Below are positions 4,702 through 50,764 of a stretch of DNA of 51,434 nucleotides, in pieces (the stretch's first letter is position 1; each line of letters begins with the position of its first letter). Made by a program: the position numbers and the translations under genes. Source of the stretch: an uncultured bacterium (GTDB taxonomy: Bacteria; Armatimonadota; Hebobacteria; CAIYQO01); the NCBI GenBank assembly GCA_964573385.1, contig CAZNLA010000001.1:1-51434 (forward strand), written 5' to 3'. A model generated the notes under the pieces. It was not told where the DNA came from, made no database searches, and was given only the letters and a program-made list of their open reading frames with translations.

Positions 4702-4711
4702 CGGTTTACTT

Positions 4712-6220: not shown

Positions 6221-6255
6221 TTTGTTAAGGAAATTCAAAATAGAAGGAGCAAATA

Positions 6256-6588: not shown

Positions 6589-6590
6589 AG

Positions 6591-12811: not shown

Positions 12812-12822
12812 GGGATATATAA

Positions 12823-15066: not shown

Positions 15067-15121
15067 GAATCGGGATTAAATACAATTAATACTGGTGATG
15101 AAATGTCACAAGAGGAGCATC

Positions 15122-27496: not shown

Positions 27497-27622
27497 TTTT
27501 AAATTGTTATTCTTTTCATCCCCAATATTAAACATTTTGAGGATAATAAATAAAAAATATTATATAGTCAGGAGGATTTTTATTTTTCAAGAAGAAAAGT
27601 AATATAGTGTTGTAAGAATAAC

Positions 27623-33702: not shown

Positions 33703-34644
33703 ATGAAGATACATTATGAACACACTGCAATTAAGGCAATATTTGAAGCATATAAATTACCTGATAATCTTAATTATTTACCAGTAGTATTAGCCTGGTC
33801 ATCTTACGAGTCATTATGTTTGTATCCTGAATATTCATTTTTACCAGTAGGTGTAGCTACGTATCTTCAACTACCACAATCTATATCTGAAATAAATAAT
33901 GTTATTTTTAAACACAAAGAACAAAAGATTTCAAATCGTTATATTGAATTGCAATACCCTATATATCAATTAGAACAGAGTTTAATATTTGTTGAAAATG
34001 ATTTAAAATCTAATGATTATATTCAAGCAAGAAATCGTATTAGTCATATTAAGCGATTCTGTAATAGATATTGGTCTTTTTTATTAGATCCTTATTTATG
34101 CTTATTGAATGATTCAACATATATTGATAGTAATGACTCATTATTTGCATGTCAGAAATTTTTCGATGTTTTACAATTTTTATCATGGATGTCATGCAAA
34201 AAGATATTTTACGCAAATGATAAAAATCAATGTTCCGTTATACAGGATGGTTTTGTTTCTCTGGAAACAATAGTTTTAAATGCGTCTCTTTTTCAGTCAT
34301 CTTTACCGCAAATGCTGCAAAACGCATTACAAAATATAGACGGCCAGCAATGGTGGATAATTCTGCAGGAAGAGATAATACTCGCGCGGACAGAGATAGA
34401 AAAATGGGGTGGACATTTGTTTTCCCCAGTAATATATCAACAAATATGTGAGATGGTAGACGTTACCAATCGGGTGTCTAATATATTAAATCATTGGACA
34501 AAATTGCATCTAACTGATGAGATGATAAAATCACAAATCTCTGAATTGCACCAGGGATTAATAGATATCCGTAATGGATTCGATGCAATTCAAACCGGAT
34601 ACGAGGAAATGACTGGCGCTTTATTAAAACTCGCAAAAGGGTAA
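33703..34644 (+). CDS. Hypothetical protein, paralog of ORF 37291-38205 (pseudo-receiver + helical module)
   Basis: 313 aa. MKIHYEHTAIKAIFEAY...LPVVLAWSSYESL...YLQLPQSISEINNVI...YQLEQSLIFVEND aligns with MTILYEHKSIQLIFQSF...DFFIGWSARNKL...YLHLPCSTEEIRKFI...WQLAESMRLLENN. Confidence 0.55.
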   Translation: MKIHYEHTAIKAIFEAYKLPDNLNYLPVVLAWSSYESLCLYPEYSFLPVGVATYLQLPQSISEINNVIFKHKEQKISNRYIELQYPIYQLEQSLIFVENDLKSNDYIQARNRISHIKRFCNRYWSFLLDPYLCLLNDSTYIDSNDSLFACQKFFDVLQFLSWMSCKKIFYANDKNQCSVIQDGFVSLETIVLNASLFQSSLPQMLQNALQNIDGQQWWIILQEEIILARTEIEKWGGHLFSPVIYQQICEMVDVTNRVSNILNHWTKLHLTDEMIKSQISELHQGLIDIRNGFDAIQTGYEEMTGALLKLAKG

Positions 34645-34652
34645 TAATTCGA

Positions 34653-37286
34653 TTGCAAAATAATTTGGAAAAACGCAATATAGCAATTATAGGGTTTCGT
34701 GACCCACTGCGCGAAGTAATTAATAATGCATTAAATCAGCATTTCATCATCGATACAGTTACGGATGACTTGTCATTGATAGCGTCTCTGGCACACGATA
34801 CTGTTCTTGTTTGCCATGCCGACTGGTTTAAATCTTTATCCATTGATTCTATAAGTGTCATACGAAAGCGATTCTTTATTTGGAATCCAATTATTGTTAT
34901 AGAACGTTCCCCCAATAACGTGGATGAAGATACCATGTGGAACGTTTGCCGACTTACTCCACCTTTAAATGTATCTCTGCTGGTAAAACATATTACGCAG
35001 GCAATATCATTTCCGGATAACCGTCAGGTTGAGGTTTTAACATCCGCATTGTATCAACTGCGTGAAGATTTGTTGTACCTGCATCAGTTAGAAAATGGCA
35101 ACACCCATATTGACGACAATAAAGTGCGCAAAGATGTGGCAGAAACATTAACATTGTTGAAAAACGTTGGTAAAGTTGCCAATAATAAGGAGTTTACCGA
35201 TTTAAGTGAAACAGCAAACGACCTGTTAGCGTTGCCAACATTGGATGAAGCAGCATTGCAGGTGATATTGCCGTTGGTTGTAAATGCCGATTCTAAAGCC
35301 CGGGAGATAGATTTGCCGGCGTTATTGCGCAGTAAAATGCACCAGTTAAGCAATACAGTTCGTTTGGCGTTATACCATGCTAACGATTCATCATCTACAA
35401 GAATTGGTGATTTGTACGACTTGCTGTCTGTATTGCCGATTCAGCAAATTGATACATTTTCACATGATTTGGTTGAACCGTTAATCAGTTTACGAAATAA
35501 GTTTTTTGAAATAGTACATGACAAAACCGATATTACAGAAAATTTTAATGCGACACAACTGGACGAGTTACCATTTCAATGCGCAACCTTGATAAGTAAG
35601 TTATTAATGCCATCAGTGCCATTATCGGCGTCAGTAATAAAGCGGATAGTGGTAATAGAAGATGACCCGGGTTGGCAAACTCAGATTTTATCTGTATTGG
35701 CTACCATTGGATTAACTATTCCAATTCAATCTGCCAGCACTATAGAGGAAGGCGAACGGTTATTAAAAGAAAGCGAAAATGGCACGCTGGCACTGGTTGA
35801 TCTGGGATTGCCGTTAAATGAAAAAGACGCGAAAAAAGGATTAACAGACCTTGATGGTGGCCTGAAATTATTGAAGATATGCGCAAAAAATCCGAATTTG
35901 GGAATACGCGCTATAGTATTGACCGCCGCAGAGAACTTTGCCGATGCGGTGCGCGACGCCCTGGCAAGTGGGGTAGACGCAGCCGATTATATCCAAAAAG
36001 ACCCGCGAAATTGGGAAGAACAATTGCGTTCGCGCGTACAACTTGCCGTGCAGTCACCCACACCGACCCACCTTCCCGTGGTGGATGTGCTGCAATGCAC
36101 CGCCAGGCTAATCCGGGTTGATGGGGTAGAAATTGCTTTGGAAAGAAGGCCATATATTTTATTTGAATATTTGGCAAAATATGCGCGTATCCCCAGAAAA
36201 ATAACATATATTCGCCAAGCTCTGACAACGCCAGGCGACCGTGACATAACACCAGCAATGTCTAAGGAACAGCAGAAATCATTGCTTGCTGGCGATGATA
36301 TAAGCCCGTATGATTTGCTGACCCCAAAACATCTGCAGGATTACCTGTATGACCTGCGCAAACAGATTGAAAACGGTTTGGATGGTTTGGGGATAACCCA
36401 TGATTATAGCAATCTAATCACTTATCATCCTGATTCAGAAGCGTATTGTTTAAATGCTGATATTCGCATGGTTGAGCAATTTGAACAGTTATCAAAAACT
36501 GCAGAATTGCGGAAGGTATTGATAATAGAGGACCACCCACAATGGTATGAAACCTTATCAAATCATCTGAAAAGTTTAGGTTTTGATGTTAAGGCAGTAA
36601 AAACACTGGATGACGCAAAACAGGCGATAGATGAATGGGCCCCGCATAATGTAACATTAGACCTGCAGATACCGCGAAATAATGATGAATTGCAGGCAGG
36701 TATACAACCACATGAAGAAAATGGAATAGCGGTGATGAGATATTTAAAAGAGCACCTTCCAGACACCGGTATTATAGTGATTTCTTCAATTGATTGGAAA
36801 GATTCAGTAATGCTGGAGATGTTGCGAGCAGGAATAGCGCCCCACGATTACATATCAAAACAATGGGATGATGCATTAAACCGGGTTGCGCAATCGATAT
36901 GGAGATTAACAATTCGGCGTGAAAACGGTTCTCAAATTAATCCGGGCATGTCACCAGGCACAATTGCGTATATTAATATTGATGAAGTAGCAGATACGAT
37001 AGAAATAGCCGGTTGCCAGGTTAAACTATATCCTGACGGGAAAAAGATATTAAAGATGCTGGCAAAAAGTCCGAATATGCCAGTGCAACGGGATACAATA
37101 GTTGATATGTTATGGCCAAACCCGGATTTGATTCCTGATGATTTTGATGGTTTAATAAACACCATCATATCAAGACTGCGTAAATCTATCAGTGACAGCA
37201 CACAAGGTAAAGTAGAAGGCAAGCAATTGATTCGTAATGCTGACGGTGTATATTGGTTGCAAGGAATTATCAGTTATAAAGAATGA
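34653..37286 (+). CDS. Giant response regulator: pseudo-receiver + helical region + (REC - OmpR/PhoB-type winged helix) x2
   Basis: 877 aa with a TTG start 8 nt after the previous stop. REC1 is IVVIEDDPGW...LALVDLGLP...AIVLTAAE...DYIQKD, followed by wHTH IRVDGVEIALERRPYILFEYLAKY. REC2 is VLIIEDHPQW...VTLDLQIP...IIVISSID...DYISKQ, followed by wHTH IEIAGCQVKLYPDGKKILKML...LINTIISRLRKSI. Confidence 0.7.
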   Translation: MQNNLEKRNIAIIGFRDPLREVINNALNQHFIIDTVTDDLSLIASLAHDTVLVCHADWFKSLSIDSISVIRKRFFIWNPIIVIERSPNNVDEDTMWNVCRLTPPLNVSLLVKHITQAISFPDNRQVEVLTSALYQLREDLLYLHQLENGNTHIDDNKVRKDVAETLTLLKNVGKVANNKEFTDLSETANDLLALPTLDEAALQVILPLVVNADSKAREIDLPALLRSKMHQLSNTVRLALYHANDSSSTRIGDLYDLLSVLPIQQIDTFSHDLVEPLISLRNKFFEIVHDKTDITENFNATQLDELPFQCATLISKLLMPSVPLSASVIKRIVVIEDDPGWQTQILSVLATIGLTIPIQSASTIEEGERLLKESENGTLALVDLGLPLNEKDAKKGLTDLDGGLKLLKICAKNPNLGIRAIVLTAAENFADAVRDALASGVDAADYIQKDPRNWEEQLRSRVQLAVQSPTPTHLPVVDVLQCTARLIRVDGVEIALERRPYILFEYLAKYARIPRKITYIRQALTTPGDRDITPAMSKEQQKSLLAGDDISPYDLLTPKHLQDYLYDLRKQIENGLDGLGITHDYSNLITYHPDSEAYCLNADIRMVEQFEQLSKTAELRKVLIIEDHPQWYETLSNHLKSLGFDVKAVKTLDDAKQAIDEWAPHNVTLDLQIPRNNDELQAGIQPHEENGIAVMRYLKEHLPDTGIIVISSIDWKDSVMLEMLRAGIAPHDYISKQWDDALNRVAQSIWRLTIRRENGSQINPGMSPGTIAYINIDEVADTIEIAGCQVKLYPDGKKILKMLAKSPNMPVQRDTIVDMLWPNPDLIPDDFDGLINTIISRLRKSISDSTQGKVEGKQLIRNADGVYWLQGIISYKE

Positions 37287-37290
37287 AGTT

Positions 37291-38205
37291 ATGACTATTT
37301 TATATGAACATAAATCAATACAGTTAATATTCCAATCTTTCTTTCCGGAGATAGATGAGAAAAATTGTGATTTTTTCATAGGGTGGTCAGCACGAAATAA
37401 ATTAGCTTTATCACCGCAGTTTTGTATATTAACGCAACCGGAAATACCTTATCTACATTTGCCGTGTTCAACTGAAGAAATTCGTAAATTTATTCGCAGA
37501 GTTCCAACAGAATTATCTGGTGATAAATTTATAAGTTCTTCTTTTCCATATTGGCAATTGGCCGAAAGTATGCGACTTCTTGAAAATAACCAGCAATCTT
37601 TTACCAGATTACAAATGCTTGATGCTTTTTGCAACCATGAATGGCCGGGATGGTATGACGATTTATTTACTAAATTATATAAAGTTATTAATAACAATAA
37701 AAAGGATATATCATTTATAACTCGAATAGTTATCAAAAATGATGGTAAGTTTGCAGCACAGGTAGATTTCGTCAGATCTTTTTCAACATTATTCCACAGT
37801 GCTAAAAACGATGCTGTTAATCGTTGGTTCGGGCCATTAAGAACCATGTTGTGTGGATATGCTCCGGATGAACCGGGAGGGTATCGTTTGTCAGATATAT
37901 TATTGTTGTTGGATAAAGGTGAGAAGTGGTGGGTAACATTGCCATCGATGCTGAATACAACCTGTGACTATCTGGTAAAACGCGGTATATCCGATAAATT
38001 ACCTTTTGAATATAAATTGGCAAAAATAATGGCAGCACAGGCAACAGATTTATCGAATACTATTGTTAGATGGCTTGCAGTTATGGATGAAAAAACTTTT
38101 CTTAAACAACATGTAAAGAGTTTAAAACAAATTGATAGAATGATAGATGGTATTCAACGAATAGAGCATAATGCCGCAAAATTACGAAAAAGGTTGGTGG
38201 ATTAG
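37291..38205 (+). CDS. Hypothetical protein, paralog of ORF 33703-34644
   Basis: The track ORF starts at 37237 but overlaps the previous gene. ATG 37291 (MTILYEH...) lies 4 nt after the previous stop and aligns with the start of the paralog. Confidence 0.55.
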   Translation: MTILYEHKSIQLIFQSFFPEIDEKNCDFFIGWSARNKLALSPQFCILTQPEIPYLHLPCSTEEIRKFIRRVPTELSGDKFISSSFPYWQLAESMRLLENNQQSFTRLQMLDAFCNHEWPGWYDDLFTKLYKVINNNKKDISFITRIVIKNDGKFAAQVDFVRSFSTLFHSAKNDAVNRWFGPLRTMLCGYAPDEPGGYRLSDILLLLDKGEKWWVTLPSMLNTTCDYLVKRGISDKLPFEYKLAKIMAAQATDLSNTIVRWLAVMDEKTFLKQHVKSLKQIDRMIDGIQRIEHNAAKLRKRLVD

Positions 38206-38206
38206 A

Positions 38207-41032
38207 ATGCGAAAAGTTTTATTGATTGATGACGATGGACAACATTGGGCAGAAGTACTAAATCGGCCATTTAATGCTGATAATTGGCATATTGTTGTAG
38301 CAAAAACTGCTGAGAGTGGTATTTACCGTTTGCAGCAACGAGATATTGGTGTGATTCTTCTTGACTTACAATTTGCTCATTCACAGATGCAAGGTACTGA
38401 CGCATTAACTGTTTTAAAAAGTAATTATCCGGATATCCCGGTAATTATTATTACCAGCTCCGGTAAAGCGACTGATATCCGGACTGCTATAGAATGTGTC
38501 AAAAATGGTGCATGGGATTATTTTACTAAATCTAAACTTGACGCGAATCGATTATTACAGGAATGTAATAAAGCAGTTGAATCGGCATTAACTCATGAAC
38601 GTTTAAATCGTCTGGTAGATTCTTTCCATCGAACAGTAAGTGATAGTCCATTTATCTTATCCACCACAGAAGATGACGGCAGTTCACTTGCTATTTTTGC
38701 AATTAAAATTATTTATGTAACACAATTTGATAAAGAGAATCAGGATATATTATCATATCAGAGATGGTTTGAAGATCAAATGCATTGGCATGAGAACTTA
38801 GTGTCTGGTTTGTTGAGTCGCTTACCGGGAAGAACTGTAGAATTGCGATATATTAATACAGTAACAGAAGATGGTGATGATAGTCTTGGAATTTTTGTAG
38901 TAGGAAGAATTAAAGCATCGAATTTAGATATTGCACGCCAGGGAGCACATGAATTATGGATTGATTTACAGTCATTACTTCATGTTAATGATAAGTTAAT
39001 CGGTTTTACTTCTGTATCTAATGAGAATGATTTGCGGATAATTTTAAAACCATTTCATGTTAAAGAAATCACGGAATTTCGTCGTGAAGGTGTATCTGTT
39101 CCTGTTGAGGATGATATTACACACATAGGATTTGGTGAAAAAACAGACATCGTTAAATCAAAGGATATTTTGATTCCAAGACCCTTGCCACAAACAGATT
39201 CACTGATGAAAGTTTTCTGCGAAACTTTATCACATAATAAATATCCTGTTTTAGTTTCTATTAAGTTAGATTGTGATAGTGTTGTTCTGCCTGATATAAA
39301 AAATGGTTTTATTCCGCAGGATCTATTGCTTTCTCAGGATCAATCAGGTGTTTTATGGAGAAAGTTTGAAAGTTTATATAATTGTGAAACAACAATATGT
39401 AATTTACGTATTTGTGTAGCTTCCGAAAAGAAGTTACCGTCATCATTGTTGAATATGATAGGAACAGAATTAATATCTACAGAACCATCACTTTGGAAAA
39501 CATATAATTTGTCGACAAAAAATGTTGAGAAAGCTGTTACTGATTATGCAATTAAACTTGATAATATTGAAGTTATGGAAACTTTAACGACAGTATATAC
39601 CATCAGTGAAGCCACACACGCATTTAGATTGCCTATTGTAATAGGTGCCGGGTACATTGGTCTTTCAACCAATAAACCACAATATACATATATTCCCAAA
39701 CGGTTACCTAAAAAAGGCGCTTTGCTTGGGGTAAAGCATACATCAAAAGGTGATATTAATATTCGCATACCGGATGAAGACCGTACAAAGCATGTATATG
39801 TCCTTGGCCAAACAGGAACAGGTAAATCAACATTAATGACCAGTATGATATTATCAGATATTGAAGCTGGTAAAGGTGTATGTGTCTTAGATCCACATGG
39901 TGATTTGATTGATTATTTATTACCACGAATACCGGAAAAACGTGCTGATGACTTAATTCATCTTGACCCGGGGTGCAATGTAGATACACCATTCGGGTTG
40001 AATCTATTTGAGGCAAGAACGGATTATGAAAAAGATTTCGTTGTTCAGGAATCAATTAATATTTTTTATAAATTATTCGATCCAAATAGAACAGGTATGG
40101 TAGGACCACAATTTGAACATTGGATGAGAAATGGTGCTCTGACATTGATGTCATCTCCTGAAGGGGGAACATTAATAGATATTTCAGTTTTATTTACTGA
40201 TTTATTTGAATTTCGTAAAAAAGGTGGTGAGGGAGGTGAGTTTATGAAAGCGAAACGTTCCTTTGTCACAAATCCGGCAGTGAAAGATTTTTGGCGACAA
40301 ATAGATGGTGCTACAGATTTTCACATTTCAGAGATGATGAATTATTTTATTAGTAAATTTAGCAGATTTTCCGGAAATAGAACTATACGAAATATAATGG
40401 GACAAACAAAAAGCACTATCAACTTACGGGATGCAATGGATACCAGTAAAATATTATTAATTAATTTATCTAAAGGTATGCTGGGTGATATGAATAGTAA
40501 TTTATTGGGATCAATATTTTTATCCAGAATATATATGGCTGCTATGAGCAGGCAGGAACTTGCTATTAACGATCGTCGTCCATTCTATATTTATCTTGAC
40601 GAGTTTCAGAACTTTGCGACTGAATCTATGGAGTCGATGTTAAGTGAAATTCGTAAATACGGTGTAGCTTTGGTTTTGGCACATCAAAATCAAGCGCAAT
40701 TACCGACTAGATTACTTGAGGCAGTATTGGGTAATGTGAATTCCACGATATTCTTTCGTCCGGGAGCACCTGATGCAAATCGGGTAAATTTATATTTACA
40801 AAATAGATTTACAGAAGCCGAATTAGTAAACTTTCCTAATTGGCACGTTATCGCACGTATACTCATTGATAATGTACCATCTATTCCATTTGTTTTTAAT
40901 ACCGTTATTAATGATTTACAACCTAATAATGAAATAGCAAGTTATTATCGTGAGATGAGCAAGAGAAAATACGGTAGACCTTCTGAAATAGTAGAACGTG
41001 AGATAAATAAAAGATTAATGATAGATAGGTGA
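38207..41032 (+). CDS. REC-domain protein fused to an FtsK/HerA/VirD4 (T4CP-like) P-loop ATPase
   Basis: The track ORF starts at 38171. ATG 38207 (MRKVLLIDDD) lies 1 nt after the previous stop. REC is VLLIDDDGQ...VILLDLQF...VIIITSS...DYFTKS. Walker A is VLGQTGTGKST (nt ~39806-39832), with VLDPHGDLIDYL, Walker B FYIYLDEFQNF, and LVLAHQNQAQL. Confidence 0.65.
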   Translation: MRKVLLIDDDGQHWAEVLNRPFNADNWHIVVAKTAESGIYRLQQRDIGVILLDLQFAHSQMQGTDALTVLKSNYPDIPVIIITSSGKATDIRTAIECVKNGAWDYFTKSKLDANRLLQECNKAVESALTHERLNRLVDSFHRTVSDSPFILSTTEDDGSSLAIFAIKIIYVTQFDKENQDILSYQRWFEDQMHWHENLVSGLLSRLPGRTVELRYINTVTEDGDDSLGIFVVGRIKASNLDIARQGAHELWIDLQSLLHVNDKLIGFTSVSNENDLRIILKPFHVKEITEFRREGVSVPVEDDITHIGFGEKTDIVKSKDILIPRPLPQTDSLMKVFCETLSHNKYPVLVSIKLDCDSVVLPDIKNGFIPQDLLLSQDQSGVLWRKFESLYNCETTICNLRICVASEKKLPSSLLNMIGTELISTEPSLWKTYNLSTKNVEKAVTDYAIKLDNIEVMETLTTVYTISEATHAFRLPIVIGAGYIGLSTNKPQYTYIPKRLPKKGALLGVKHTSKGDINIRIPDEDRTKHVYVLGQTGTGKSTLMTSMILSDIEAGKGVCVLDPHGDLIDYLLPRIPEKRADDLIHLDPGCNVDTPFGLNLFEARTDYEKDFVVQESINIFYKLFDPNRTGMVGPQFEHWMRNGALTLMSSPEGGTLIDISVLFTDLFEFRKKGGEGGEFMKAKRSFVTNPAVKDFWRQIDGATDFHISEMMNYFISKFSRFSGNRTIRNIMGQTKSTINLRDAMDTSKILLINLSKGMLGDMNSNLLGSIFLSRIYMAAMSRQELAINDRRPFYIYLDEFQNFATESMESMLSEIRKYGVALVLAHQNQAQLPTRLLEAVLGNVNSTIFFRPGAPDANRVNLYLQNRFTEAELVNFPNWHVIARILIDNVPSIPFVFNTVINDLQPNNEIASYYREMSKRKYGRPSEIVEREINKRLMIDR

Positions 41033-41096
41033 AATTTCTATTCATACCGTTTAATTTTATGATTTGTAAATCAGATATTGATAAATTGGAGAAAAA

Positions 41097-43145
41097 ATGC
41101 CGAAAAAAATAATATGCACCGTTGAACCTGCAATTGAGAAATTACTTGAAAGTTTTTTTGTTAAATGGGATGTTCAAGCAATAATGATTCCTTGTTCGAA
41201 CTCTATGGGAAACTTAAAACAATTATTACCAGAACAAGAGAAGTTTGTTGAGTGTTGGGCGAATGCTGTTATTGAACATATTGAAGATGATTCTGCGCTA
41301 TTAGTTCAGGTTGATTTAATCCCAGGTAAACGTGCAAAAGGATATGGTTTATTACTGGCAGAACGAATACGTGCTGAACGTATAATACCTACAATTATTA
41401 TGACTCTTGATACTAATATTGCAACGCGCAATTCGACACGTCGGGCCAGGTTAGCAAATGGAAAAACACGATTTCCTGTTGTGCCTATTATTACAGGAGA
41501 TGATATACAAAATAAATTTGCATCTCGTATACCTTTTGTTGTGTGGGACCCTCTGTCAGGTAAAAATAGTTTTAATAAATCATATAATGCGGCTCAAAAA
41601 ACTATTTTTGGAATAAGACCACAGCAGGAAATAGTGGTAAAAAGTGAATTAGTTGAGGCACTTCAGGACGAAGAAGCCGCAGCACTGCGTCATCGAATTA
41701 AAAATATGTTAGCGAGTTTAAGAATATTAGACGGTGCGTATAGGAATGGGTGGTTAACATATGATGAAGTAACAAAATCGTTAACAACTTTACAAATGCG
41801 TGCTGTCGATGAAAATCAGAAGAAAGCATTGGAAAGTTTGGCTAATACATTGTATAATATTCTTCAAAGTTCATTATTACAAGAAGCAAGTCCTCGCGAC
41901 ATGACACTGGTTGTATGTGATGACTTATGGGAGACAGCTGGATGGGATCAGGTTATTCCACCCATGGTAAGTCATCTTTTTGGTATGGACACCCATGGGG
42001 TTGTATCACTAAATGAACTTGCGCTATATTTAGAAAAAGCAAGTGAAGAATTAATTCCACCCCGCACATTGCTACTGGACGTTCATGTCGGAACAGAAAA
42101 TGTTGATGCTGATTATTTAGAATATTTACACAAAGATTTCCCGGATCTGGATATAATTTTATTTACTACAGATTTGAATGATGGTGTATTAGTCCGTAAA
42201 GTTTATGAATTGGGGTATCGAATATTTTTTAAAGAACTTGATGAATCGGCAAGAAATACTCGTCAATATGCTACTCACCTACGGCAAATGCTGGAACAAT
42301 CTATCAGGTCATATCCCATTATGCATTTATTACAATTTGCTGAAAAAGCAGATAGTTCTGTAATGGTGGCCGAACCGGCAGCAGTTATTAAAACGATGCA
42401 ATCAGTAATGAGATTGTGGAGAGACACAGGTGAAACGTCCAGTGTATTAGGATTGACCGCTTTGCATGAAAGGCTGACAAAGTGTGTTCACGCTATGGCA
42501 AACCATAGGGAATCTCGATTCCCTACCAAAGTAAATAGTAGTAGTGTTGATTGGGGTTTAGTATTGTCGAGAATCTGTAATTATTTAAATGTTAATGTCA
42601 ATGATTGTGGTTTACCATTTACACAATTATTTCAAAACACATTTTATTTAGCTAAATATTCACGTAACCAGATGGCGCATAATGCAGATATGATACTTGA
42701 AGCAGACACTAATATGCCTGCGTTAGGCATTGCACTAACGCAAATAATCGCAAGTATAACGTTATCGGGTGTAGCATATCCGATAGCTATACAAAATTCG
42801 AATGAAATATTAGATGATGAGTACCTTAGTCTTAGTTTGTTGGAGTTCGCAAAATCAATATATTATTCAACAGAATCTATGAAGCCTCGGACGCGTTCCC
42901 GTTTCAAATCTCTGGTGGAAGATGGGGCATTTTGTGAAGCACCAAAATTACTTCAATTATTAAATGATTTATCTCATCAGGCAGATCCTATTTTTATGGG
43001 TAAAACAGGGATGCCGGTTTATACACCGACAAAATTTTTACACAATGAGATTGTAAATCTTAACAATAATCTTGATAAAATACAGGAAATGAACTCCTAT
43101 CAGTGGGTACTTGTTTTGTATTGCATATTAGTGTTAGACCGGTAA
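41097..43145 (+). CDS. Pseudo-receiver + REC + C-terminal HEPN-like domain protein
   Basis: 682 aa. REC is LVVCDDLWE...LLLDVHVG...IILFTTD...IFFKE. The HEPN-type motif is YSRNQMAHN (R at nt 42663, H at 42678). Confidence 0.55.
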   Translation: MPKKIICTVEPAIEKLLESFFVKWDVQAIMIPCSNSMGNLKQLLPEQEKFVECWANAVIEHIEDDSALLVQVDLIPGKRAKGYGLLLAERIRAERIIPTIIMTLDTNIATRNSTRRARLANGKTRFPVVPIITGDDIQNKFASRIPFVVWDPLSGKNSFNKSYNAAQKTIFGIRPQQEIVVKSELVEALQDEEAAALRHRIKNMLASLRILDGAYRNGWLTYDEVTKSLTTLQMRAVDENQKKALESLANTLYNILQSSLLQEASPRDMTLVVCDDLWETAGWDQVIPPMVSHLFGMDTHGVVSLNELALYLEKASEELIPPRTLLLDVHVGTENVDADYLEYLHKDFPDLDIILFTTDLNDGVLVRKVYELGYRIFFKELDESARNTRQYATHLRQMLEQSIRSYPIMHLLQFAEKADSSVMVAEPAAVIKTMQSVMRLWRDTGETSSVLGLTALHERLTKCVHAMANHRESRFPTKVNSSSVDWGLVLSRICNYLNVNVNDCGLPFTQLFQNTFYLAKYSRNQMAHNADMILEADTNMPALGIALTQIIASITLSGVAYPIAIQNSNEILDDEYLSLSLLEFAKSIYYSTESMKPRTRSRFKSLVEDGAFCEAPKLLQLLNDLSHQADPIFMGKTGMPVYTPTKFLHNEIVNLNNNLDKIQEMNSYQWVLVLYCILVLDR

Positions 43146-43177
43146 TATTATGAAAATATATAATTTGAAGAAATAAA

Positions 43178-44047
43178 ATGTTAAAAAACATCTATCTAAT
43201 TGAAGAAAAAAATTATACTGTTCAGGAACTTGATTTATTGTTTCCGGGGCAAGCAATTGTTGCAGTAGACTTTGCTGTTTCTGGTATTGAAAGATCATTT
43301 ATTAAAAATGGTTTGCATACAGTTGGATTAGTTTCAAATTGTGACCATCACATACCAGTGTCTCAATTTGAAAAAGTAGTATCAAGCACAAATTTAGCTA
43401 TATGCTATGTTAACCAATATGGCAAATTACCCGAGAAAACTGTTGTTGTGATAAATCATGTAGATTGTGACAGTGTTTTAGCTAGTTTGATTCTGAAAGG
43501 ATTTTTACCTACTGATGATAAATTTGGAAATGCAGCTATTGCTGCCGACCATACAGGTGAAGAAAATGATATTGCTGATTTGTTAAATTCTTTACAAAAG
43601 TTTAAAAGTTTAAATTATTCAGTAAACAATTTAATGTTATTTTTAGGGGAAGATCAAATTCCTAAGAAGGTATTAGACCTGATTGAAATACGTCGGGATG
43701 ATCGAAAAAGAGCATGGGAATTAGTGGAAAATGCCGGATTAGAGTTTCTTGATGGTGTATATTATGGTACTTTGAATAGAAAAATTGATGGTGCATTTCT
43801 GCCGGCGCTTTTGCCAGATGCGAAGATTATATTAATATTTACTCCGCTTAATGGTGATGCTAGTCGTTTAGAGGTAAAAGTTCGTTTGGGCTTTAACGCA
43901 CCTGAAGGGAAACATTTAAATAATATTGGAATAAAAGAGTTTGACCCAGCATATGGTGGACGTTGGAATGCAGGGTCAAATAAACGCGGTGGTGGAACAA
44001 GCTTAAAGCCGTTAGATTATGTAAAAGAGATTCTAAAAAGAATTTAA
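43178..44047 (+). CDS. Hypothetical protein, possibly a DHH/DHHA1-like phosphoesterase (weak)
   Basis: 289 aa. VVVINHVDCDSVLASLIL resembles the H-x-x-D-x-D-x-x-x-S DHH motif. NCDHH and AADHTGEEN are also present. The C-terminal YGGRWNAGSNKRGGG resembles the DHHA1 GGGH..AAG motif. The motif order is not canonical. Confidence 0.3.
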   Translation: MLKNIYLIEEKNYTVQELDLLFPGQAIVAVDFAVSGIERSFIKNGLHTVGLVSNCDHHIPVSQFEKVVSSTNLAICYVNQYGKLPEKTVVVINHVDCDSVLASLILKGFLPTDDKFGNAAIAADHTGEENDIADLLNSLQKFKSLNYSVNNLMLFLGEDQIPKKVLDLIEIRRDDRKRAWELVENAGLEFLDGVYYGTLNRKIDGAFLPALLPDAKIILIFTPLNGDASRLEVKVRLGFNAPEGKHLNNIGIKEFDPAYGGRWNAGSNKRGGGTSLKPLDYVKEILKRI

Positions 44048-44127
44048 TAAATATGACACAGGTAAAAGTTTTAAATATCAGATATCAGAAATAAGAATAA
44101 TTTTCAAGTCTATAAGAGGTGAATATT

Positions 44128-46782
44128 ATGAGCGCAAAATTAATAAAGTTGGATGAAGAGAAAATTTTATTTGCAGACGTTGATATTGCAGCTGTATTTT
44201 TGGGTCAAGATATCACTAATATTGAATCTTTAAAATTTGAAAATGTTAAAACTTGTAAGCTGTTGTATGTTTATGCACATTCATATACTAAGTACTGTAA
44301 TAAAAGATCTGATTTTGCTGGATTGCAGAAATTAGAGCAAGCAATAATAGAATTAGATAACCATGATATTAAAATTATTGTATTTGGTTTTCTTACTAAA
44401 AATGAGTATGGTGTATTTTCGTATCTGACTAATAACCCTACAATAATTTATAAACAACTTCCATTATGTCATGATCAATTGTTTTCAGAAGATGATGCCT
44501 TAAGTACTGTAGATGTTAGAGAGCGACAATTACTAAGGCTTAAAGCATCAGAGCGGCAATTAGAACTTACATTTGCAACAGAACGTCATAAGTTTATAGG
44601 ATTAGCAGCAGCAGTTAGAATATATTTAGGAAAGGTAGCAATACATTATAAATGTTTTAAACAAGATTATGATGAAATTAAAGAAGAATTAAAAAATTTT
44701 ATAGAAAGAGCGAATAAGTATAAAATACCAATTGATATTGATATCGATAATTTGATAATAAAAATAAAAAAACATCATGAGATTCTAAAAAGAATTAATA
44801 TAGACCTACCGGTTAGTTATTCTATAAAAATTCCGAAATGTAAAGTATGGATGTTAGACGATAATGCTGAGAATCATATGTGGGATATAGTGTTAAAAGC
44901 TATATTTGGCGATACGAATGTGAAATATGTAAAATCATGGAATGAATTTAAAGAATGGGATGTGTTTAAGAGAAGTATTATAGATAATACTGTTGACAAT
45001 TTTCTTATTGTTGATTGTAATTTGGGAGAAAACAATGAAATTGGCATAGAACTTCTTCCTGCAATCAGATCTGTATTACCTGAAATTAACATTATAATGA
45101 TGAGTGCTTTTGATGATGCAGAGACGGCATTATTAGCATTAAGAGCTGGTGCAAACTCTTATTTTGTTAAAGAAATTGGCGATTACAATGATCGTTCTTC
45201 AATAAATTATTATTGTAGTTTTATAAAGAGATTTAAAATTGATTCGAAATATAGGAATATAATAAAATTATGGCATCAATATTTAAAATCGACCCATAAT
45301 TGTAGCGAACTTTACGTAACTCAAATACTTATTTCGTTTTATTTTATGTTTTATTTTTTTGACATGAAAAGATGGGGGTATTTAGGATTATCAATTCCAG
45401 AAGAAAGAAAAAATGCTTACCTAATATCAGTCGTTAATCTTTGTCAAATTGGGGAAGGAATGTTTTTTAAAGACGAACAAATAGCTATAAAGGTTAGGCA
45501 TGGTTACCCAATAACATATAAAGATGCATATGATTTCTTTGAAAAAATAATTAATGCCAATTTTCGTGATAATAAGAAACCTATTGAAATAAAATTACAT
45601 ACAATACAACCATATCTTCCTCGATATAGTCCGTATACTATAGATGACTTAAGAGCAGATGGTACATTTCCTGGTGTGCAACGTAAAGAGATGCGTATTA
45701 CGCACGATGATGCAACAATACGAGCAACGGATGAATTATTAAGGGGTATAAATTGTATTAACAAAGAAGATTTTAACGATGATACTTTATTGGCATGTAA
45801 TATAGAAATTAATGAAACATTTATAAAAAAAGACCATGATATACTACTAATGGATTATGAGATTAATAATTGGATTCTCACTTTGAAATCAATTTATCCA
45901 AACGCGGAATATTATAGTTTTCAAAAGGAAGGATTAAAAGGAATATCGATTAATCATCTGAAGAAATATTCAGTAATTATTATGGATTTAAAAATGCCTA
46001 CTATAAAAGATGGATTATGGTTATTACAACAACTACGAGATATAGATCCTTCAATACCCATAATTGTTATTTCTGCTTCAACTGACTATTTAGTTGCTGA
46101 ACGATGCCTTCAGTATGGTGCAATGGATTATATTTGTAAAGCATTACCATATTCTCGGGATTTTAAGCAAAGTCAGTTTTTTTTGAATCGTATACTAAAA
46201 AGTATCGATAAAGCATCTAAATACGGAAAGGGTAAGATTAGAAATTATAACAGTTTTATTGACAAACTTACATCTTTAAAATGTTTGCAAAATACAAGTC
46301 GTGAAGAATTTAGAATTATAAAAGGATGTACATTTAATAGTGATTATTTGCCTGAAGGTAATTGGGTTGATTATTTAAAGGCTGATTTATATTTATTACG
46401 TTTATTATTATATTATTATATAATTAATGTTGATGATGAAATACTATTACCAATTGATGTATGGAGAAAAGATATATATAAATTGAATAAAAGCGAAATG
46501 ATATTTAATTTGATTATATTAACAGCAGCAAGAATAATCGAAAATATAACCGAATGGGAATATAGCTTGAGAACTGAACCATCAAAAAGAATAAAAAGAA
46601 AGGATAATAAAGATTTGCCTTATTTAGCGAAAAATTATTGGAATAGAAATGCTGGTACAATTTTAAGTAAACGTAATGCATTGATACATGGTTTAAAAAA
46701 TAATGATAGTATTTGTATATTAGATGTTTTTGATACTATAATGACAATGATTAGAAAATTCTCTAAATTAACCAATATTTAA
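44128..46782 (+). CDS. Pseudo-receiver + two REC domains + C-terminal HEPN-like domain protein
   Basis: The track ORF starts at GTG 44119. ATG 44128 lies 8 nt after AAGAGG. REC1 is VWMLDDNAE...FLIVDCNLG...IIMMSAF...SYFVKE. REC2 is ILLMDYE...VIIMDLKMP...IIVISAS...DYICKALP. The HEPN-type motif is SKRNALIHG (nt 46672-46689). Confidence 0.6.
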   Translation: MSAKLIKLDEEKILFADVDIAAVFLGQDITNIESLKFENVKTCKLLYVYAHSYTKYCNKRSDFAGLQKLEQAIIELDNHDIKIIVFGFLTKNEYGVFSYLTNNPTIIYKQLPLCHDQLFSEDDALSTVDVRERQLLRLKASERQLELTFATERHKFIGLAAAVRIYLGKVAIHYKCFKQDYDEIKEELKNFIERANKYKIPIDIDIDNLIIKIKKHHEILKRINIDLPVSYSIKIPKCKVWMLDDNAENHMWDIVLKAIFGDTNVKYVKSWNEFKEWDVFKRSIIDNTVDNFLIVDCNLGENNEIGIELLPAIRSVLPEINIIMMSAFDDAETALLALRAGANSYFVKEIGDYNDRSSINYYCSFIKRFKIDSKYRNIIKLWHQYLKSTHNCSELYVTQILISFYFMFYFFDMKRWGYLGLSIPEERKNAYLISVVNLCQIGEGMFFKDEQIAIKVRHGYPITYKDAYDFFEKIINANFRDNKKPIEIKLHTIQPYLPRYSPYTIDDLRADGTFPGVQRKEMRITHDDATIRATDELLRGINCINKEDFNDDTLLACNIEINETFIKKDHDILLMDYEINNWILTLKSIYPNAEYYSFQKEGLKGISINHLKKYSVIIMDLKMPTIKDGLWLLQQLRDIDPSIPIIVISASTDYLVAERCLQYGAMDYICKALPYSRDFKQSQFFLNRILKSIDKASKYGKGKIRNYNSFIDKLTSLKCLQNTSREEFRIIKGCTFNSDYLPEGNWVDYLKADLYLLRLLLYYYIINVDDEILLPIDVWRKDIYKLNKSEMIFNLIILTAARIIENITEWEYSLRTEPSKRIKRKDNKDLPYLAKNYWNRNAGTILSKRNALIHGLKNNDSICILDVFDTIMTMIRKFSKLTNI

Positions 46783-46803
46783 TAATTTTAAAGGTGACCC
46801 ATT

Positions 46804-49800
46804 TTGTCAACACTACTTTATATCGATGGTTATGAATCGAGTATACCTAACTGTGATGCTGAAAATCAGGTATTTTATATAACTGATGATGTTGCAACTT
46901 TGTATGCGTCAGAAGCTAATCAGAATATTAAACAAATATCGACGATTGAAGAGATAAATGGTATTACAAATATTCTTATACATTTAAATTCTGGGAGTAC
47001 TGTGCGTTCTCAGCGGAAAGGTATTCAATGGTTAAAACGTTTTCGCGTTTCAATGTACCAAATTAATAGAGTTGATTTAGCATCTTTACCAGCCTTGTTA
47101 TATTCTTTTGAGGATGAGTATTTGTTACAGGATACTTTTCCGATTCTCACACAACCGGGTCATACATTCTGTCAGTTGCCGACTTCATTATTAGAACTAA
47201 AAGAGAAATTAGTGAATATTTCAAAAGTTCCTGATTCAATCCTATCAGATCTATTGTGTTTTCACTGTCTTGATGATGTATGGGGACGATTAGAACATGA
47301 TTTAACCAATACTTTGAGTGATCCTAAATATTTTAATGTTGCTAAAAAAATATTGAAAGAGTGGGGTAGATTAATTGTATCTATTTGTCCAAATATAACC
47401 AGTGTTTTTAAAGAACTAACAGATGCATTTAATGGTTTAGGACATACTTATAATTCAAATAAAGTACAACATGCATTTTTTATGATAGATAAAATATCTG
47501 GTATATTGCGCGGTGAGTCTGAAGATGAATTGTTGGTGGATGCACCTTATGAATACCCACCACTAGACTGGGAAAGAATTTTAGTGGCTGATGATCGTGG
47601 TTATGAGATTTCTACAATACAACGTTTAACAAGAAAAGGATATAGAATTGAAGTAAAAACTAATATTGATGATTCTGTTGAATATTTACGCAATAATAAA
47701 TGTGATGTAATCTTATGTGATTTACATTTCCCTACCCGCAGTGATGGGGAATTCATGATTAAAATTGCTAAAGAAAAGTGCAAGGTAGTTATTGTTATAT
47801 CACGTGCTCCATTACCAAGTGATTTAAGATTACCGGCTAATGTTCTTAATGCTTGTGGCTCATTACGTTTTCAGGACTCAGAAAGAATACATCAATTAAT
47901 TTGGTCATCAGCAAAATTAAAAGGTATAATATCACCTGCTTTTGTTAGTAATCGTTTAAAGCAAAATATGCTTTATGACTCGACTCTTTTACTTAAATAT
48001 GAAATATTTTCTCGTGTTAAACATTGGGAATCGTTGCCGAAAGCAATTGTCGACGCTGTAAGTTCTATGAGTGATTTAGTATCTTCTGGTGTATTATCAA
48101 CTGAAGATACTAAGATTGTTAATGGATTTATAGATGAAATGAAGAGAAATTATATTTGTACTGAATTAACCTTTGCGCATATAAATGGGTTAGTCAAATA
48201 CTTATCTAAAAGTAATATAAAAACTCAAAACCGGCAAATTAACGATATTTTACATAATACAATCAAACAGCATATTGGTATAGCTAATGCTGGCATCAAA
48301 GATTTGTATAATAGATTGACCTTATTAAAGTTGCAATTAAAAGACGTTATACTTAAAAAGAAATATGAAAAACTTGACGTCGCGATTAGAGCATGTAAAA
48401 ATACCCGGATAAGTTATAAGGGAATACATAACTTATATGAAATTATTAGTGAAATAATAGATTTTTTACCAGTTGAAATCAATGCATCTGAATTTATAAA
48501 CAATACCAGTAAAACCAGAAATTATGGAAAAAAGATAGTTATTGCTTCTATAGAAGATAATCTGTTGTGGCATGAACAAATTGCGAATGCTATAAATATA
48601 ATTGGGAAACGTATTGGTTTACCGTATTTAATAAGTTTAAAATTATATAAAGATGTTGAATCTGCTTTAAACGATGCCACTGGAATTCCTTCATTATTAA
48701 AAGATAACATATTTGTCATTTTTATTTTAGATATGAATATACCGTTATATCAGGGTCAGAAGATATCAGATATAAATAATGAAGCAGGATTTGGATTACT
48801 TAAATGGGCAAAAGATATAAAGCGCAATCTGCCGGTAATTGTATTATCACAGCCATCATATATAATAGATGACCAGATTCGTGCATTAAATTGTGGTATT
48901 GATTATTTTATTTATAAAGTTCCTGGCAATTTGTTTAATTTAGTCAAAGCGATTGAAAATATAATTTATCAATCTTCGTTTGGTAGAATATCCTTTTTAG
49001 CGAATAATAATAAAGAGATATTGGCAGATGATGTTTTAATTAAATTAACGAAAAAAGAATATGATGTAATATATACTTTGTGTTGGATTACAAATGAAAA
49101 ACGAACAGTAGAAGAATTGAGTGGTAATAGACCAAACAAGCCATTTAAGATTCATGCTACGGATTTTAATTTGATGCCATATTCTGATATTGATGTTAAC
49201 ATACAAAATATTAGAGTTAAGATATTTAATACTTTTAAGAAAATCGGTAAATCTGTTAATCCGGATGACTTTTTATTTAAAGAAAATAATTTATATATTG
49301 TAAAGGCTGAAAGTATATTCCCGGAAGATAGAGAGATTATTCCTGAAACATATTTAGATTCAAACAATAATCGCATGAAAAAGATATCATCTAAATATAA
49401 AATATTAGTTGTAGAAAATGATCCGGTTTATTTAGATTATATTGAAGAGTTATTGAAAAGATTGTATCTTGTTGTTTATACTGCAACAAACAAGTCTGAT
49501 GCTGTTACAATACTTGAAAATAATAAAATTGATATAATATCACTTGATTTGCATATTCCTGCTAATCAGAATGAATATTTGTCTAATCATTCTGCTGGAA
49601 ATATTCAAAATGGTATCGATGTCCTGAATATTGCACGTGGATTACATCCAACAATTCGTGCAATAATACCGACTACAGTGTCGGAAACTAAAATATTACA
49701 GGAAGAATCTATAAGGCTACATGTAAGGTTAGAGGATATTGTTCCTAAAGGATACACTCTAAATGCAATTCCCTGGATAGCTCATTATTTAAATACCATA

Positions 49801-50238
49801 TCGCGTTTTATGTGTGAATTACAGAATGGTATGATGTTATATGCTGATACACGGAAAAACAGTCTGCTAATAGAAGTATTGCAAGGAAGTGAAATTGGAT
49901 CAGGAAAATTATATTTATATGTTAATGATCGTGATTCGAAATGGCAAAGAAATAAGAAAAGTCAGATAATGTATTTACTTTTAAATAATGCAAAATATAA
50001 CCCGGGAGGGATTTTAACATTAGGTGTTGTTAAATTAAAAATATGGTCAGGTGGTGTAACAGATGGAGCAATTCAATCACAAATCAGTGATATTAGAAAA
50101 ACAATTGGATCAACCTGGAATCTTTCAGGTGTTTCTCCAGAAAATGTTGTTGAATCTATACATGATAATACCCCGAGTCGTAAACTATTAGGAATTAAAT
50201 TGAATGCCGTTATTCTAGATCCAGATAATCTCATATAA
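46804..50238 (+). CDS. Giant response regulator: pseudo-receiver + REC + (REC - winged helix) x2
   Basis: 1144 aa with a TTG start. REC a is ILVADDRGYE...VILCDLHFP...VIVISRA. REC b is IASIEDN...FILDMNIP...VIVLSQP...YFIYK, followed by LIKLTKKEYDVIYTLCW. REC c is ILVVENDP...IISLDLHIP...AIIPTTV, followed by a C-terminal wHTH-like region (...IMYLLLNN...QISDIRKTI). Confidence 0.65.
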   Translation: MSTLLYIDGYESSIPNCDAENQVFYITDDVATLYASEANQNIKQISTIEEINGITNILIHLNSGSTVRSQRKGIQWLKRFRVSMYQINRVDLASLPALLYSFEDEYLLQDTFPILTQPGHTFCQLPTSLLELKEKLVNISKVPDSILSDLLCFHCLDDVWGRLEHDLTNTLSDPKYFNVAKKILKEWGRLIVSICPNITSVFKELTDAFNGLGHTYNSNKVQHAFFMIDKISGILRGESEDELLVDAPYEYPPLDWERILVADDRGYEISTIQRLTRKGYRIEVKTNIDDSVEYLRNNKCDVILCDLHFPTRSDGEFMIKIAKEKCKVVIVISRAPLPSDLRLPANVLNACGSLRFQDSERIHQLIWSSAKLKGIISPAFVSNRLKQNMLYDSTLLLKYEIFSRVKHWESLPKAIVDAVSSMSDLVSSGVLSTEDTKIVNGFIDEMKRNYICTELTFAHINGLVKYLSKSNIKTQNRQINDILHNTIKQHIGIANAGIKDLYNRLTLLKLQLKDVILKKKYEKLDVAIRACKNTRISYKGIHNLYEIISEIIDFLPVEINASEFINNTSKTRNYGKKIVIASIEDNLLWHEQIANAINIIGKRIGLPYLISLKLYKDVESALNDATGIPSLLKDNIFVIFILDMNIPLYQGQKISDINNEAGFGLLKWAKDIKRNLPVIVLSQPSYIIDDQIRALNCGIDYFIYKVPGNLFNLVKAIENIIYQSSFGRISFLANNNKEILADDVLIKLTKKEYDVIYTLCWITNEKRTVEELSGNRPNKPFKIHATDFNLMPYSDIDVNIQNIRVKIFNTFKKIGKSVNPDDFLFKENNLYIVKAESIFPEDREIIPETYLDSNNNRMKKISSKYKILVVENDPVYLDYIEELLKRLYLVVYTATNKSDAVTILENNKIDIISLDLHIPANQNEYLSNHSAGNIQNGIDVLNIARGLHPTIRAIIPTTVSETKILQEESIRLHVRLEDIVPKGYTLNAIPWIAHYLNTISRFMCELQNGMMLYADTRKNSLLIEVLQGSEIGSGKLYLYVNDRDSKWQRNKKSQIMYLLLNNAKYNPGGILTLGVVKLKIWSGGVTDGAIQSQISDIRKTIGSTWNLSGVSPENVVESIHDNTPSRKLLGIKLNAVILDPDNLI

Positions 50239-50319
50239 TGAATATAATTATCGTTTAATTTTTTTAACAGATAGACATCTGGTAAAAAAAATATTTAACA
50301 CATAAAATATCTCATTTAA

Positions 50320-50350
50320 CTCTTCGCATTTAAAATGCGGAGAGTTTTTT
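50320..50350 (+). terminator. Strong rho-independent terminator closing the REC cluster
   Basis: CTCTTCGCAT (50320-50329) pairs with ATGCGGAGAG (50335-50344), giving a 10-bp stem with one G-U. The loop is TTAAA and TTTTTT follows (50345-50350). Confidence 0.75.
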
Positions 50351-50352
50351 AT

Positions 50353-50383
50353 TTGACAGAGCGCCTTTATCCCCATGTAGTAT
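50353..50383 (+). promoter_or_regulatory. Promoter-like box TTGACAGAGCG-N14-TAGTAT upstream of the DUF4258-like ORF
   Basis: TTGACA (50353-50358), a 19-nt spacer, then TAGTAT (50378-50383). About 70 percent identical boxes with the same 19-nt spacing head each tandem repeat unit (50807, 51049, 51310). Confidence 0.4.
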
Positions 50384-50422
50384 ATTATGTTTGTAAACGA
50401 AACATCTTGTTGGAGGATTATT

Positions 50423-50764
50423 ATGGTACATTTTTTACTTTGTTATCACATTAGCGATCACACTCTGGCCCGTTGTCAGCAACGCGGTATTGGGGAAGAC
50501 GACCTGTTCGCCGTATTCTATTTCGGTATGGTTGAACGCACCCATGGTTGCCTGCGTTATATATTAACCGACCGTTCTCTTGCCAATACGCCGTTAGCTA
50601 AAGATGCCCACCGCTTACGTGGTCTGACACTGGTCGTTAATCCTGTTAGTAATGAAGTGGTGACCGTTAAGCATCAATATGACATTGCCGGTCGTCCCGG
50701 CATATTAAGAAAGAGTCAATTGCTTGAACGTGCGAAGAAGCGAGACCGTGATGTAGCCGCATGA
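50423..50764 (+). CDS. Small DUF4258-like (toxin-like) protein
   Basis: The track ORF starts at 50387. ATG 50423 lies 6 nt after GGAGG (50412-50416). MVHFLLCYHISDHTLARCQQRGIGEDDLFAVFYFG resembles the DUF4258 pattern (..s.HA..RmqeRgI..edi..v). It is visibly GC-richer than the rest of the window. Confidence 0.4.
   Translation: MVHFLLCYHISDHTLARCQQRGIGEDDLFAVFYFGMVERTHGCLRYILTDRSLANTPLAKDAHRLRGLTLVVNPVSNEVVTVKHQYDIAGRPGILRKSQLLERAKKRDRDVAA

Follow-up and report, generated by a model that had tools for sequence, protein, structure and literature searches.

HEPN ribonucleases (RNases) serve as executioners in numerous defence and toxin systems, such as Cas13, Csm6, RNase L and Abi, and the switches that control them include guide RNA, cyclic oligoadenylate (cOA), 2-5A and the loss of an antitoxin. 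HEPN RNases with a fused sensor are represented by Csm6/Csx1 (CARF-HEPN), RNase L and Ire1 (kinase-KEN), Abi2/AbiD-F and Swt1-type proteins. Here, we analysed a stretch of 51,434 nucleotides from an uncultured bacterium of the Armatimonadota (GenBank assembly GCA_964573385.1, contig CAZNLA010000001.1, positions 1 to 51,434 of the forward strand; hereafter the window), concentrating on two long open reading frames (ORFs), ORF 41097 and ORF 44119, and on the gene that lies between them, ORF 43178. A previous sequence-only reading had taken the two long ORFs for paralogs, each coupling a two-component receiver (REC) domain to a HEPN RNase, on either side of a small putative phosphoesterase. Our best explanation, which we hold tentatively, is narrower: ORF 41097 would encode a receiver-gated HEPN-type RNase and ORF 44119 a regulatory paralog, with ORF 43178 inserted between them.

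A 2013 census of HEPN domains describes an Rx4-6H motif in which the Arg is followed by a polar residue, typically N, D or H; the motif lies at the end of helix 3, an insert separates helices 2 and 3, and helix 2 often carries Ex3[KR] (PMC3710099). The same census reports no REC-HEPN fusion (PMC3710099), and our literature search found no paper with this term.

The helical core of ORF 41097

The window is one co-directional gene array of low G+C content. According to the ORF list, ORF 41097 encodes 682 residues, while ORF 44119 encodes 887 residues from a GTG start codon or 884 from an ATG at position 44128. Both frames, as well as both R-N-x-x-x-H motifs, RNQMAH in ORF 41097 (R523 to H528) and RNALIH in ORF 44119 (R852 to H857), are located exactly where the sequence-only reading had placed them (Table 1). 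Its statement that both proteins end in a motif-bearing helical domain does not hold for ORF 41097, whose motif sits ~155 residues before the C-terminus. With three RNxxxH occurrences among the 15,167 residues encoded in the window against 0.74 expected, the motif alone is weak evidence, and conservation is therefore the relevant test. Judged by the aligned sequences, the motif of ORF 41097 is conserved in its family, whereas that of ORF 44119 is not. A third candidate HEPN motif, ARNRISH in ORF 33703, was rejected, as the ortholog L008_1604 does not conserve it.

The homologs of ORF 41097 (P0009-P0015) share 28-60% identity with it. We aligned the core of the protein (residues 425-563; alignment A10) across eight family members within this range and the more distant L004_13129, giving nine sequences that span 15-60% identity. 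W441, L453, E458, A519, R523, N524, H528 and P541 are invariant in all nine, and the Ex3[KR] context around E458 is found in seven of them. The sequence-only reading had proposed conservation of the Arg and His as a check on its HEPN assignment, and for ORF 41097 this check came out in its favour: R523, N524 and H528 are retained in the eight members and in L004_13129, which reads RLRNVLLHG at this site, such that an Rx4-6H motif is present family-wide.

In the secondary structure predicted by AlphaFold2, helices at residues 427-444 and 448-471 (the second of which holds the invariant E458, as an acidic residue of helix 2) are followed by an insert with a short helix, then by a helix at residues 507-528 that ends in the RNxxxH motif and, after a loop, by a helix at residues 540-560. 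This predicted order fits the published description of HEPN domains (PMC3710099). Two sub-significant matches fall on ORF 41097: phrog_2158, annotated as an 'abortive infection resistance protein', which covers the motif in one of the nine members (E 0.14), and Pfam TMV_coat (E 0.08), a four-helix fold that has been likened to HEPN (PMC3710099). HEPN is thus the best-fitting, though unproven, assignment for this domain, the fold itself being a prediction.

The ORF 41097 family is very rare. A profile of its C-terminal 300 residues retrieved five clusters from 1.84 billion representative proteins, and no relatives were found among 185,579 species-representative genomes.

A His-bearing helix joined to a receiver

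ORF 41097 and ORF 44119 do not match each other by BLASTP (E 1.3), but their family profiles share a central module (hhalign probability 97.6%, E 2.7e-12; residues 174-414 of ORF 41097 and 134-387 of ORF 44119). This module consists of a helix with the motif RHxhxxxxAxxRIxxG (hereafter the His-helix), a linker and a receiver, and the R, H, A, R, I and G of its helix are invariant in 13 sequences drawn from both families. The ORF 41097 family carries the unit once and the ORF 44119 family twice, with a degenerate second His-helix and two receivers, REC1 and REC2, that are related to each other (hhalign 98.8%). The C-terminal domains of the two proteins are unrelated by hhalign (0.2%), so that the proposed paralogy stands for the central module and not for the output domains. 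As far as the profiles can tell, the two proteins are deeply diverged members of a rare superfamily, built on a unit in which a His-bearing helix and a phosphorylatable receiver are combined with a helical output domain that varies. Two further relationships were considered and rejected: hhalign finds no kinship of the middle domain of ORF 44119 with the C-terminus of ORF 41097 or with its own C-terminus, and it detects nothing to suggest that the N-terminal domains are receiver-like or mutually related.

Both proteins had been credited with canonical receivers. This is correct for ORF 44119, which has two Pfam-significant ones (PF00072; 85.7 bits against a cut-off of 30.2); the three motifs cited in support (VIIMDLKMP, IIVISAS and DYICKALP) all come from its REC2, and none from ORF 41097. 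The receiver of ORF 41097 gave zero REC matches in Pfam, NCBIfam and PADLOC, and was recognized by comparing residues ~268-385 with the REC1 and REC2 profiles of the ORF 44119 family (hhalign 96.0% and 90.9%, respectively). Within it, D275, D276, D328 and K379 are invariant in an alignment of eight relatives, and position 357 is occupied by T in six of the eight and by S in the other two. The receiver of ORF 41097 is thus divergent, yet apparently phosphorylatable.

A helix with an invariant His in front of each receiver (RHxhxxxxAxxRIxxG in all 13 sequences) invites the main rival reading, namely that the locus is a kinase-less His-Asp phosphorelay hub. H199, H157, H461 and H528 would then be phosphotransfer or phosphatase residues, the helical domains, as HPt-like bundles or bundles of a novel kind, would pass phosphoryl groups between the many receivers of the cluster, and the outputs would be the winged helix-turn-helix (wHTH) proteins and the ATPase encoded nearby, with no RNase involved. 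The order REC-HPt is common in hybrid kinases, and the gene cluster around the two ORFs encodes at least eight receiver domains and no histidine kinase. Of note, H461 of ORF 44119, placed in its middle helical domain (which has zero Pfam matches), is family-invariant in an [RK]-H-G context, and the same motif is present in L022, L025 and L008. Moreover, the His-helix locally resembles the HPt signature HxxKG (RcsD, HRLKGVFAMLNL; P0015, HRLKGLMACLRI), and when its profile was compared with six E. coli HPt domains, the sole hhalign alignment, 13 columns long, fell on the phospho-histidine with a score of 18.2 (P 0.034), higher than any of 200 column-shuffled controls (maximum 14.9). However, column shuffling is a lenient control, and the probability of this alignment is 1.5%, as compared with 75-97% (scores of 35-71) for true HPt domains in leave-one-out controls; furthermore, Pfam and PDB profile searches returned no HPt or HisKA match. 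In ORF 41097, an RNxxxH motif with a polar residue after the Arg and an upstream Ex3[KR] is the signature of HEPN and not of HPt. We regard a pure phosphorelay hub as unlikely, while taking it seriously.

The motif of ORF 44119, KRNALIHG, is lineage-specific as judged from its relatives. The seven relatives with a complete C-terminus (P0002-P0005, L022, L024 and L025) conserve a W-x-x-R-N motif located nine residues upstream of it, and in all seven there is neither a His 4-6 residues past the Arg of W-x-x-R-N nor a second RN...H. R852...H857 therefore occurs in the window protein only, and the acidic residue of helix 2 is only partly conserved (E or D). AlphaFold2 gave an all-helical but unusable model of this region (predicted local distance difference test, pLDDT, 47; predicted template modelling score, pTM, 0.33). 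With H857 absent from the seven relatives, a catalytic HEPN domain is unsupported at the family level, and the HEPN reading, plausible for ORF 41097, does not extend to ORF 44119. The copy in the window could nevertheless have regained an active site. The neighbouring NRNAGTIL was considered as the source of KRNALIHG through a tandem duplication of the DNA, and rejected, since the two share 11 of 24 nucleotides, no better than chance. In a scan of representative genomes, a single relative of ORF 44119 was found, in an Armatimonadota metagenome-assembled genome (MAG). Because the catalytic His is not a feature of its family, ORF 44119 would more probably be a regulatory or scaffold paralog.

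The architecture, the conserved residues, the synteny and the rarity described here are observations; for ORF 41097 we infer a HEPN fold, RNase activity and activation by phosphorylation. Its output would most likely be an RNase of the HEPN type that works independently of metal: once phosphorylated at D328, the receiver would dimerise, and in the dimer two E458/R523/N524/H528 sites would come together as one active composite RNase, much as dimerisation activates Csm6, RNase L and Ire1. The outcome would be growth arrest or degradation of transcripts.

Several results weigh against this proposal. Data on the ORF 41097 family are thin, with only ~9 sequences known, and the AlphaFold2 model of its C-terminal region, made with all available homologs, is poor (pLDDT 58, pTM 0.53). 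Foldseek searches with the poor models of both C-terminal regions against PDB and BFVD gave best E values of 0.3-0.7 at TM scores of ~0.2, with noise matches such as rhodopsins, BAR domains and G protein-coupled receptors, which makes the fold comparison uninformative and not negative. No significant HEPN match was obtained in Pfam, NCBIfam, PADLOC, PHROGs or PDB sequence profiles; the first four scans took in whole proteins, fragments and every family member, and the PDB profile searches, made with alignments A5, A8 and A10, returned nothing relevant. Because the AlphaFold models are poor, the HEPN assignment is confirmed by neither profile nor fold search. In addition, the motif of ORF 44119 is unconserved and its C-terminal domain is unrelated to that of ORF 41097, as described above, and no HisKA or HATPase_c match was found among the 27 plus-strand ORFs of the window that were scanned; nor is a histidine kinase annotated in the related loci.

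ORF 43178 and the surrounding gene cluster

The family of ORF 43178 counts at least 661 homologs or clusters, including some from candidate phyla radiation (CPR) bacteria and Gemmatimonadota, and is without a Pfam model; some of its members carry a fused NADAR domain (PF08719). Its Pfam DHH match is sub-threshold (17 bits against a cut-off of 28.1, E 0.007) and covers motif I only, and a PDB profile search weakly returned a DHH PAP phosphatase (E 2). D56-H57-H58, H94xD96xD98, D124-H125 and RWNAG are invariant in the family; the first three look like metal-ligand motifs, but their order is non-canonical for DHH proteins, which are characterised by DxD, D, DHH and D motifs in that order and by a DHHA1 domain. 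A phosphoesterase role is plausible. In L008, the closest syntenic locus (59% identity), 13 nt separate the orthologs of ORF 41097 and ORF 44119, and no gene intervenes. A gene resembling ORF 43178 is likewise missing from L004, L023 and other related loci, and its homologs elsewhere adjoin TrmB regulators, PolyA polymerase and other unrelated genes. The two long ORFs do flank ORF 43178 as originally described, but it is not their conserved partner, and it is probably an unrelated inserted passenger gene.

These observations bear on the sequence-only reading in its full form, in which both long ORFs encode active receiver-gated HEPN RNases that cause suicide or growth arrest, and the DHH-like protein is their functional partner, processing, for example, 2',3'-cyclic phosphate ends or signalling nucleotides. 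Each of the two motifs conforms to Rx4H with an N next to the R, both AlphaFold2 secondary structures place the motif near the end of a long helix with another helix next, and KRNALIHG resembles the RLRNVLLHG of the 41097-type protein L004_13129; moreover, the three genes run in one direction, separated by short gaps that hold no terminator. Set against this, seven relatives of ORF 44119 lack H857 and the second RN and keep only W-x-x-R-N, the C-terminal domains are unrelated by hhalign, and the DHH-like gene is missing from the related loci and found in unrelated contexts elsewhere. Taken as a whole, this scenario appears decidedly improbable.

ORF 41097 and ORF 44119 belong to a larger receiver-rich cluster (Table 1). 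The genes 33703, 37237, 34653, 38171, 41097, 44119 and 46804 recur together, in varying subsets, in seven independent loci (L001, L002, L004, L005, L006, L008 and L023), and no intrinsic terminators were found between the cluster genes on the plus strand. In L001 and L006, an ortholog of ORF 46804 immediately precedes the 41097-like gene, and in L002 one immediately precedes the 44119-like gene.

Table 1. Positions of ORF 41097, ORF 44119, their domains and the neighbouring genes (window coordinates)
Feature	Position (nt)	Strand	Description
Partner genes upstream	33703..41032	+	Pfam, PADLOC; synteny in L008, L004, L005, L006, L023
33703 and 37237		+	Upstream partners; small paralogs
34653		+	Upstream partner; REC-wHTH-REC-wHTH
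38171	38171-41032	+	REC + VirD4/TraD/HerA-like, MAD8-like ATPase
ORF 41097	41097..43145	+	N-terminal domain (aa 1-170), His-helix module, divergent receiver, HEPN-like core, C-terminal helical extension
His-helix module, ORF 41097 aa ~172-268	41610..41900	+	R198-H199 at nt 41688-41693; motif RHxhxxxxAxxRIxxG
Divergent REC, ORF 41097 aa ~268-385	41898..42251	+	D275, D276, D328, T357, K379
HEPN-like helical core (predicted), ORF 41097 aa ~425-563	42369..42785	+	E458-x3-K462 at nt 42468-42482; R523-N524-x3-H528 at nt 42663-42680
ORF 43178, 289 aa	43178..44047	+	DHH-like, widespread family
ORF 44119	44119..46782	+	N-terminal domain, His-helix 1, REC1, middle helical domain, degenerate His-helix 2, REC2, C-terminal helical domain
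His-helix 1, ORF 44119 aa ~130-243	44506..44847	+	R156-H157 at nt 44584-44589; RHxFxGLAAAVRIYLG invariant in the 44119 family
REC1, ORF 44119 aa ~243-355	44845..45183	+	Pfam Response_reg; D247, D248, D299, K351 invariant
Middle helical domain, ORF 44119 aa ~356-575	45184..45843	+	Alignment A9; H461 at nt 45499-45501
REC2, ORF 44119 aa ~576-690	45844..46188	+	Pfam Response_reg, best stretch aa 604-676; D623 invariant
C-terminal helical domain, ORF 44119 aa ~691-887	46189..46782	+	W841-N-R843-N844 at nt 46639-46650; R852-N-A-L-I-H857 at nt 46672-46689
ORF 46804, 1144 aa, multi-REC	46804..50238	+	Pfam, NCBIfam; weak OmpR/PhoB-family matches hint at wHTH

The cluster also includes an ATPase, ORF 38171, which matches TrwB_AAD_bind, TraG-D_C, the TraD/VirD4 families and HerA. 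Conceivably, the receivers control a mobile element or DNA transfer, by regulating a coupling ATPase of the VirD4/TraD type, while the helical domains are interaction or regulatory domains and not nucleases. Along these lines, in L005 (458-7125) the 44119-like and the 34653-like gene have VirB8, TraG/VirD4 and VirB11-like genes as neighbours, a hint of some connection with type IV secretion or with a mobile element, and OmpR-type DNA-binding domains are found in two of the partner proteins (in ORF 46804 by weak matches). However, the window contains no type IV secretion genes and most of the related loci lack them too, ORF 38171 has matches to HerA and, in its ATPase part, to PADLOC mad8 (E 1e-13) as well, and the adjacent methyltransferases match mad2. 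Control of DNA transfer would, moreover, leave the invariant E...RNxxxH of ORF 41097 unexplained, and we find it a distinctly unlikely account of the cluster.

Relay and effector could also be combined. In such a kinase-less system, HPt-like His-helices would relay phosphoryl groups among the at least eight receivers, and the outputs would be the HEPN RNase of ORF 41097, the VirD4/HerA-like ATPase and the two wHTH regulators. We consider this combination rather improbable; if true, it would stand for a new class of conflict or defence system that is controlled by phosphorylation, and would contain the first REC-HEPN effector.

Within the cluster, gene 34653 overlaps 37237 by 50 nt (37237-37286), and 37237 overlaps 38171 by 35 nt (38171-38205), which suggests translational coupling or, otherwise, start codons placed too far upstream. 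The G+C content is markedly uneven from gene to gene across 34653-50764, at 0.41 for 34653, 0.36 for 41097, 0.27 for 44119 and 0.30 for 46804, and it is 0.46 for the DUF4258 gene at 50387. Solute-binding or ABC-transporter genes adjoin the cluster in three independent loci, being of the Liv type in the window (21982-26475), NMT1 in L004 (1-160) and Peripla_BP_6 in L005 (16223-17377); these may represent a sensory input, or a coincidence. In L004, a methyltransferase gene is also found upstream of multi-REC genes.

L002 is an Armatimonadota MAG (JBKBRF010000015.1; region 12917-22841) in which an inosine-uridine nucleoside hydrolase comes after the 44119-like gene and is succeeded in turn by a 384-residue protein whose homology is limited to the N-terminal domain of ORF 41097. 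Next come HD-CE/TCAD9, vWA and Tubulin_2 proteins, domains that are typical of 'conflict systems' (PMC7159879).

Another part of the window, 3406-7538, holds a run of genes ancillary to type III CRISPR (clustered regularly interspaced short palindromic repeats) systems: Csm6 (with the HEPN motif RRNMSLFAHG), a Card1-like CARF nuclease, Csx3 and a further CARF protein; neither cas10 nor a CRISPR array was seen among the ORFs of the window. ORF 3406, previously noted as a cOA-controlled HEPN protein, is indeed of the Csm6 type (Pfam PF09670, E 1.4e-25). The idea that two signalling logics converge here on one nuclease class comes down to co-location, the CARF genes being >25 kb away and no homologous locus having a CRISPR link. 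A receiver has been proposed as a cOA sensor in Cam2 (PMC11229360); a comparable type III CRISPR link for the present receivers was dropped, given the same distance and the lack of CRISPR genes in the related loci. Beyond this run, the window contains three very large ORFs (8591-20545; 1406, 747 and 1816 residues) with zero Pfam or PADLOC matches, followed by the gene of an 8xMP octameric membrane protein (20737-21135).

Comparison with known systems

Taken together, what the sequence-only reading had observed is partly confirmed, and its interpretation is partly supported, for ORF 41097 alone. If confirmed, a receiver-wired HEPN protein would represent a known class of effector under a new form of regulation, within an undescribed receiver-rich cluster; it would add aspartyl phosphorylation to the switches of HEPN RNases and tie classical bacterial signalling to growth arrest at the level of RNA. 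Should the domain not be HEPN, the result would be a more modest one, i.e., two new response-regulator output domains without known function. In addition, the analysis brings to light a rare receiver-rich cluster in which no kinase is encoded and the His-helix is invariant, and which could provide a tractable system for studying non-canonical phosphorelays.

The match to one described defence system is partial. Like MADS (methylation-associated defence system, mad1-8), the locus has methyltransferases that match PADLOC mad2 (ORFs 26495 and 27623, window 26495-30913; E about 1e-18) and, in ORF 38171, an ATPase part that matches mad8. Unlike MADS, it has a receiver-rich gene set without a MADS counterpart, and PADLOC found no mad1, mad3, mad4, mad5, mad6 or mad7 in the window. 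As mad6, mad7 and mad8 are mandatory in MADS (bioRxiv 10.1101/2023.03.30.534895) and the first two are absent, the cluster is therefore not MADS.

With the HPt and hybrid-kinase modules of ArcB, BarA, EvgS, TorS, RcsD and CheA P1, the superfamily shares a local H-x-[LIF]-K-[GN]-x-x-A-[SA]-[LV] on a predicted helix adjoining a receiver. It departs from them in that the His-helix precedes the receiver instead of HPt following it, an invariant Arg stands in place of the HPt Gly at H+10, and a likeness at the level of the whole domain is undetectable (the 1.5% against 75-97% given above). Enzymatic-output response regulators such as CheB, PleD, RpfG and PorX (REC-PglZ) offer a second parallel: in these, too, a receiver with DD-D-T/S-K residues precedes an effector domain, and several receiver proteins are encoded together. 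Here, unlike in those systems, the cluster is without a cognate histidine kinase, an extra His-helix stands before each receiver, an additional N-terminal domain is present and the outputs fall outside known families.

Finally, ORF 41097 differs from the described HEPN RNases in that its sensor is a two-component receiver and not a CARF, SAVED or kinase domain, and in that its family is absent from Pfam, NCBIfam and PADLOC and gave no profile or fold match to HEPN families here. What it shares with them is R-N-x3-H, the upstream invariant Glu of Ex3[KR], an all-helical domain of ~135 residues and a motif placed at a predicted helix end; and, as in the sensor-gated members of the class, an N-terminal dimerising sensor could gate a composite active site.

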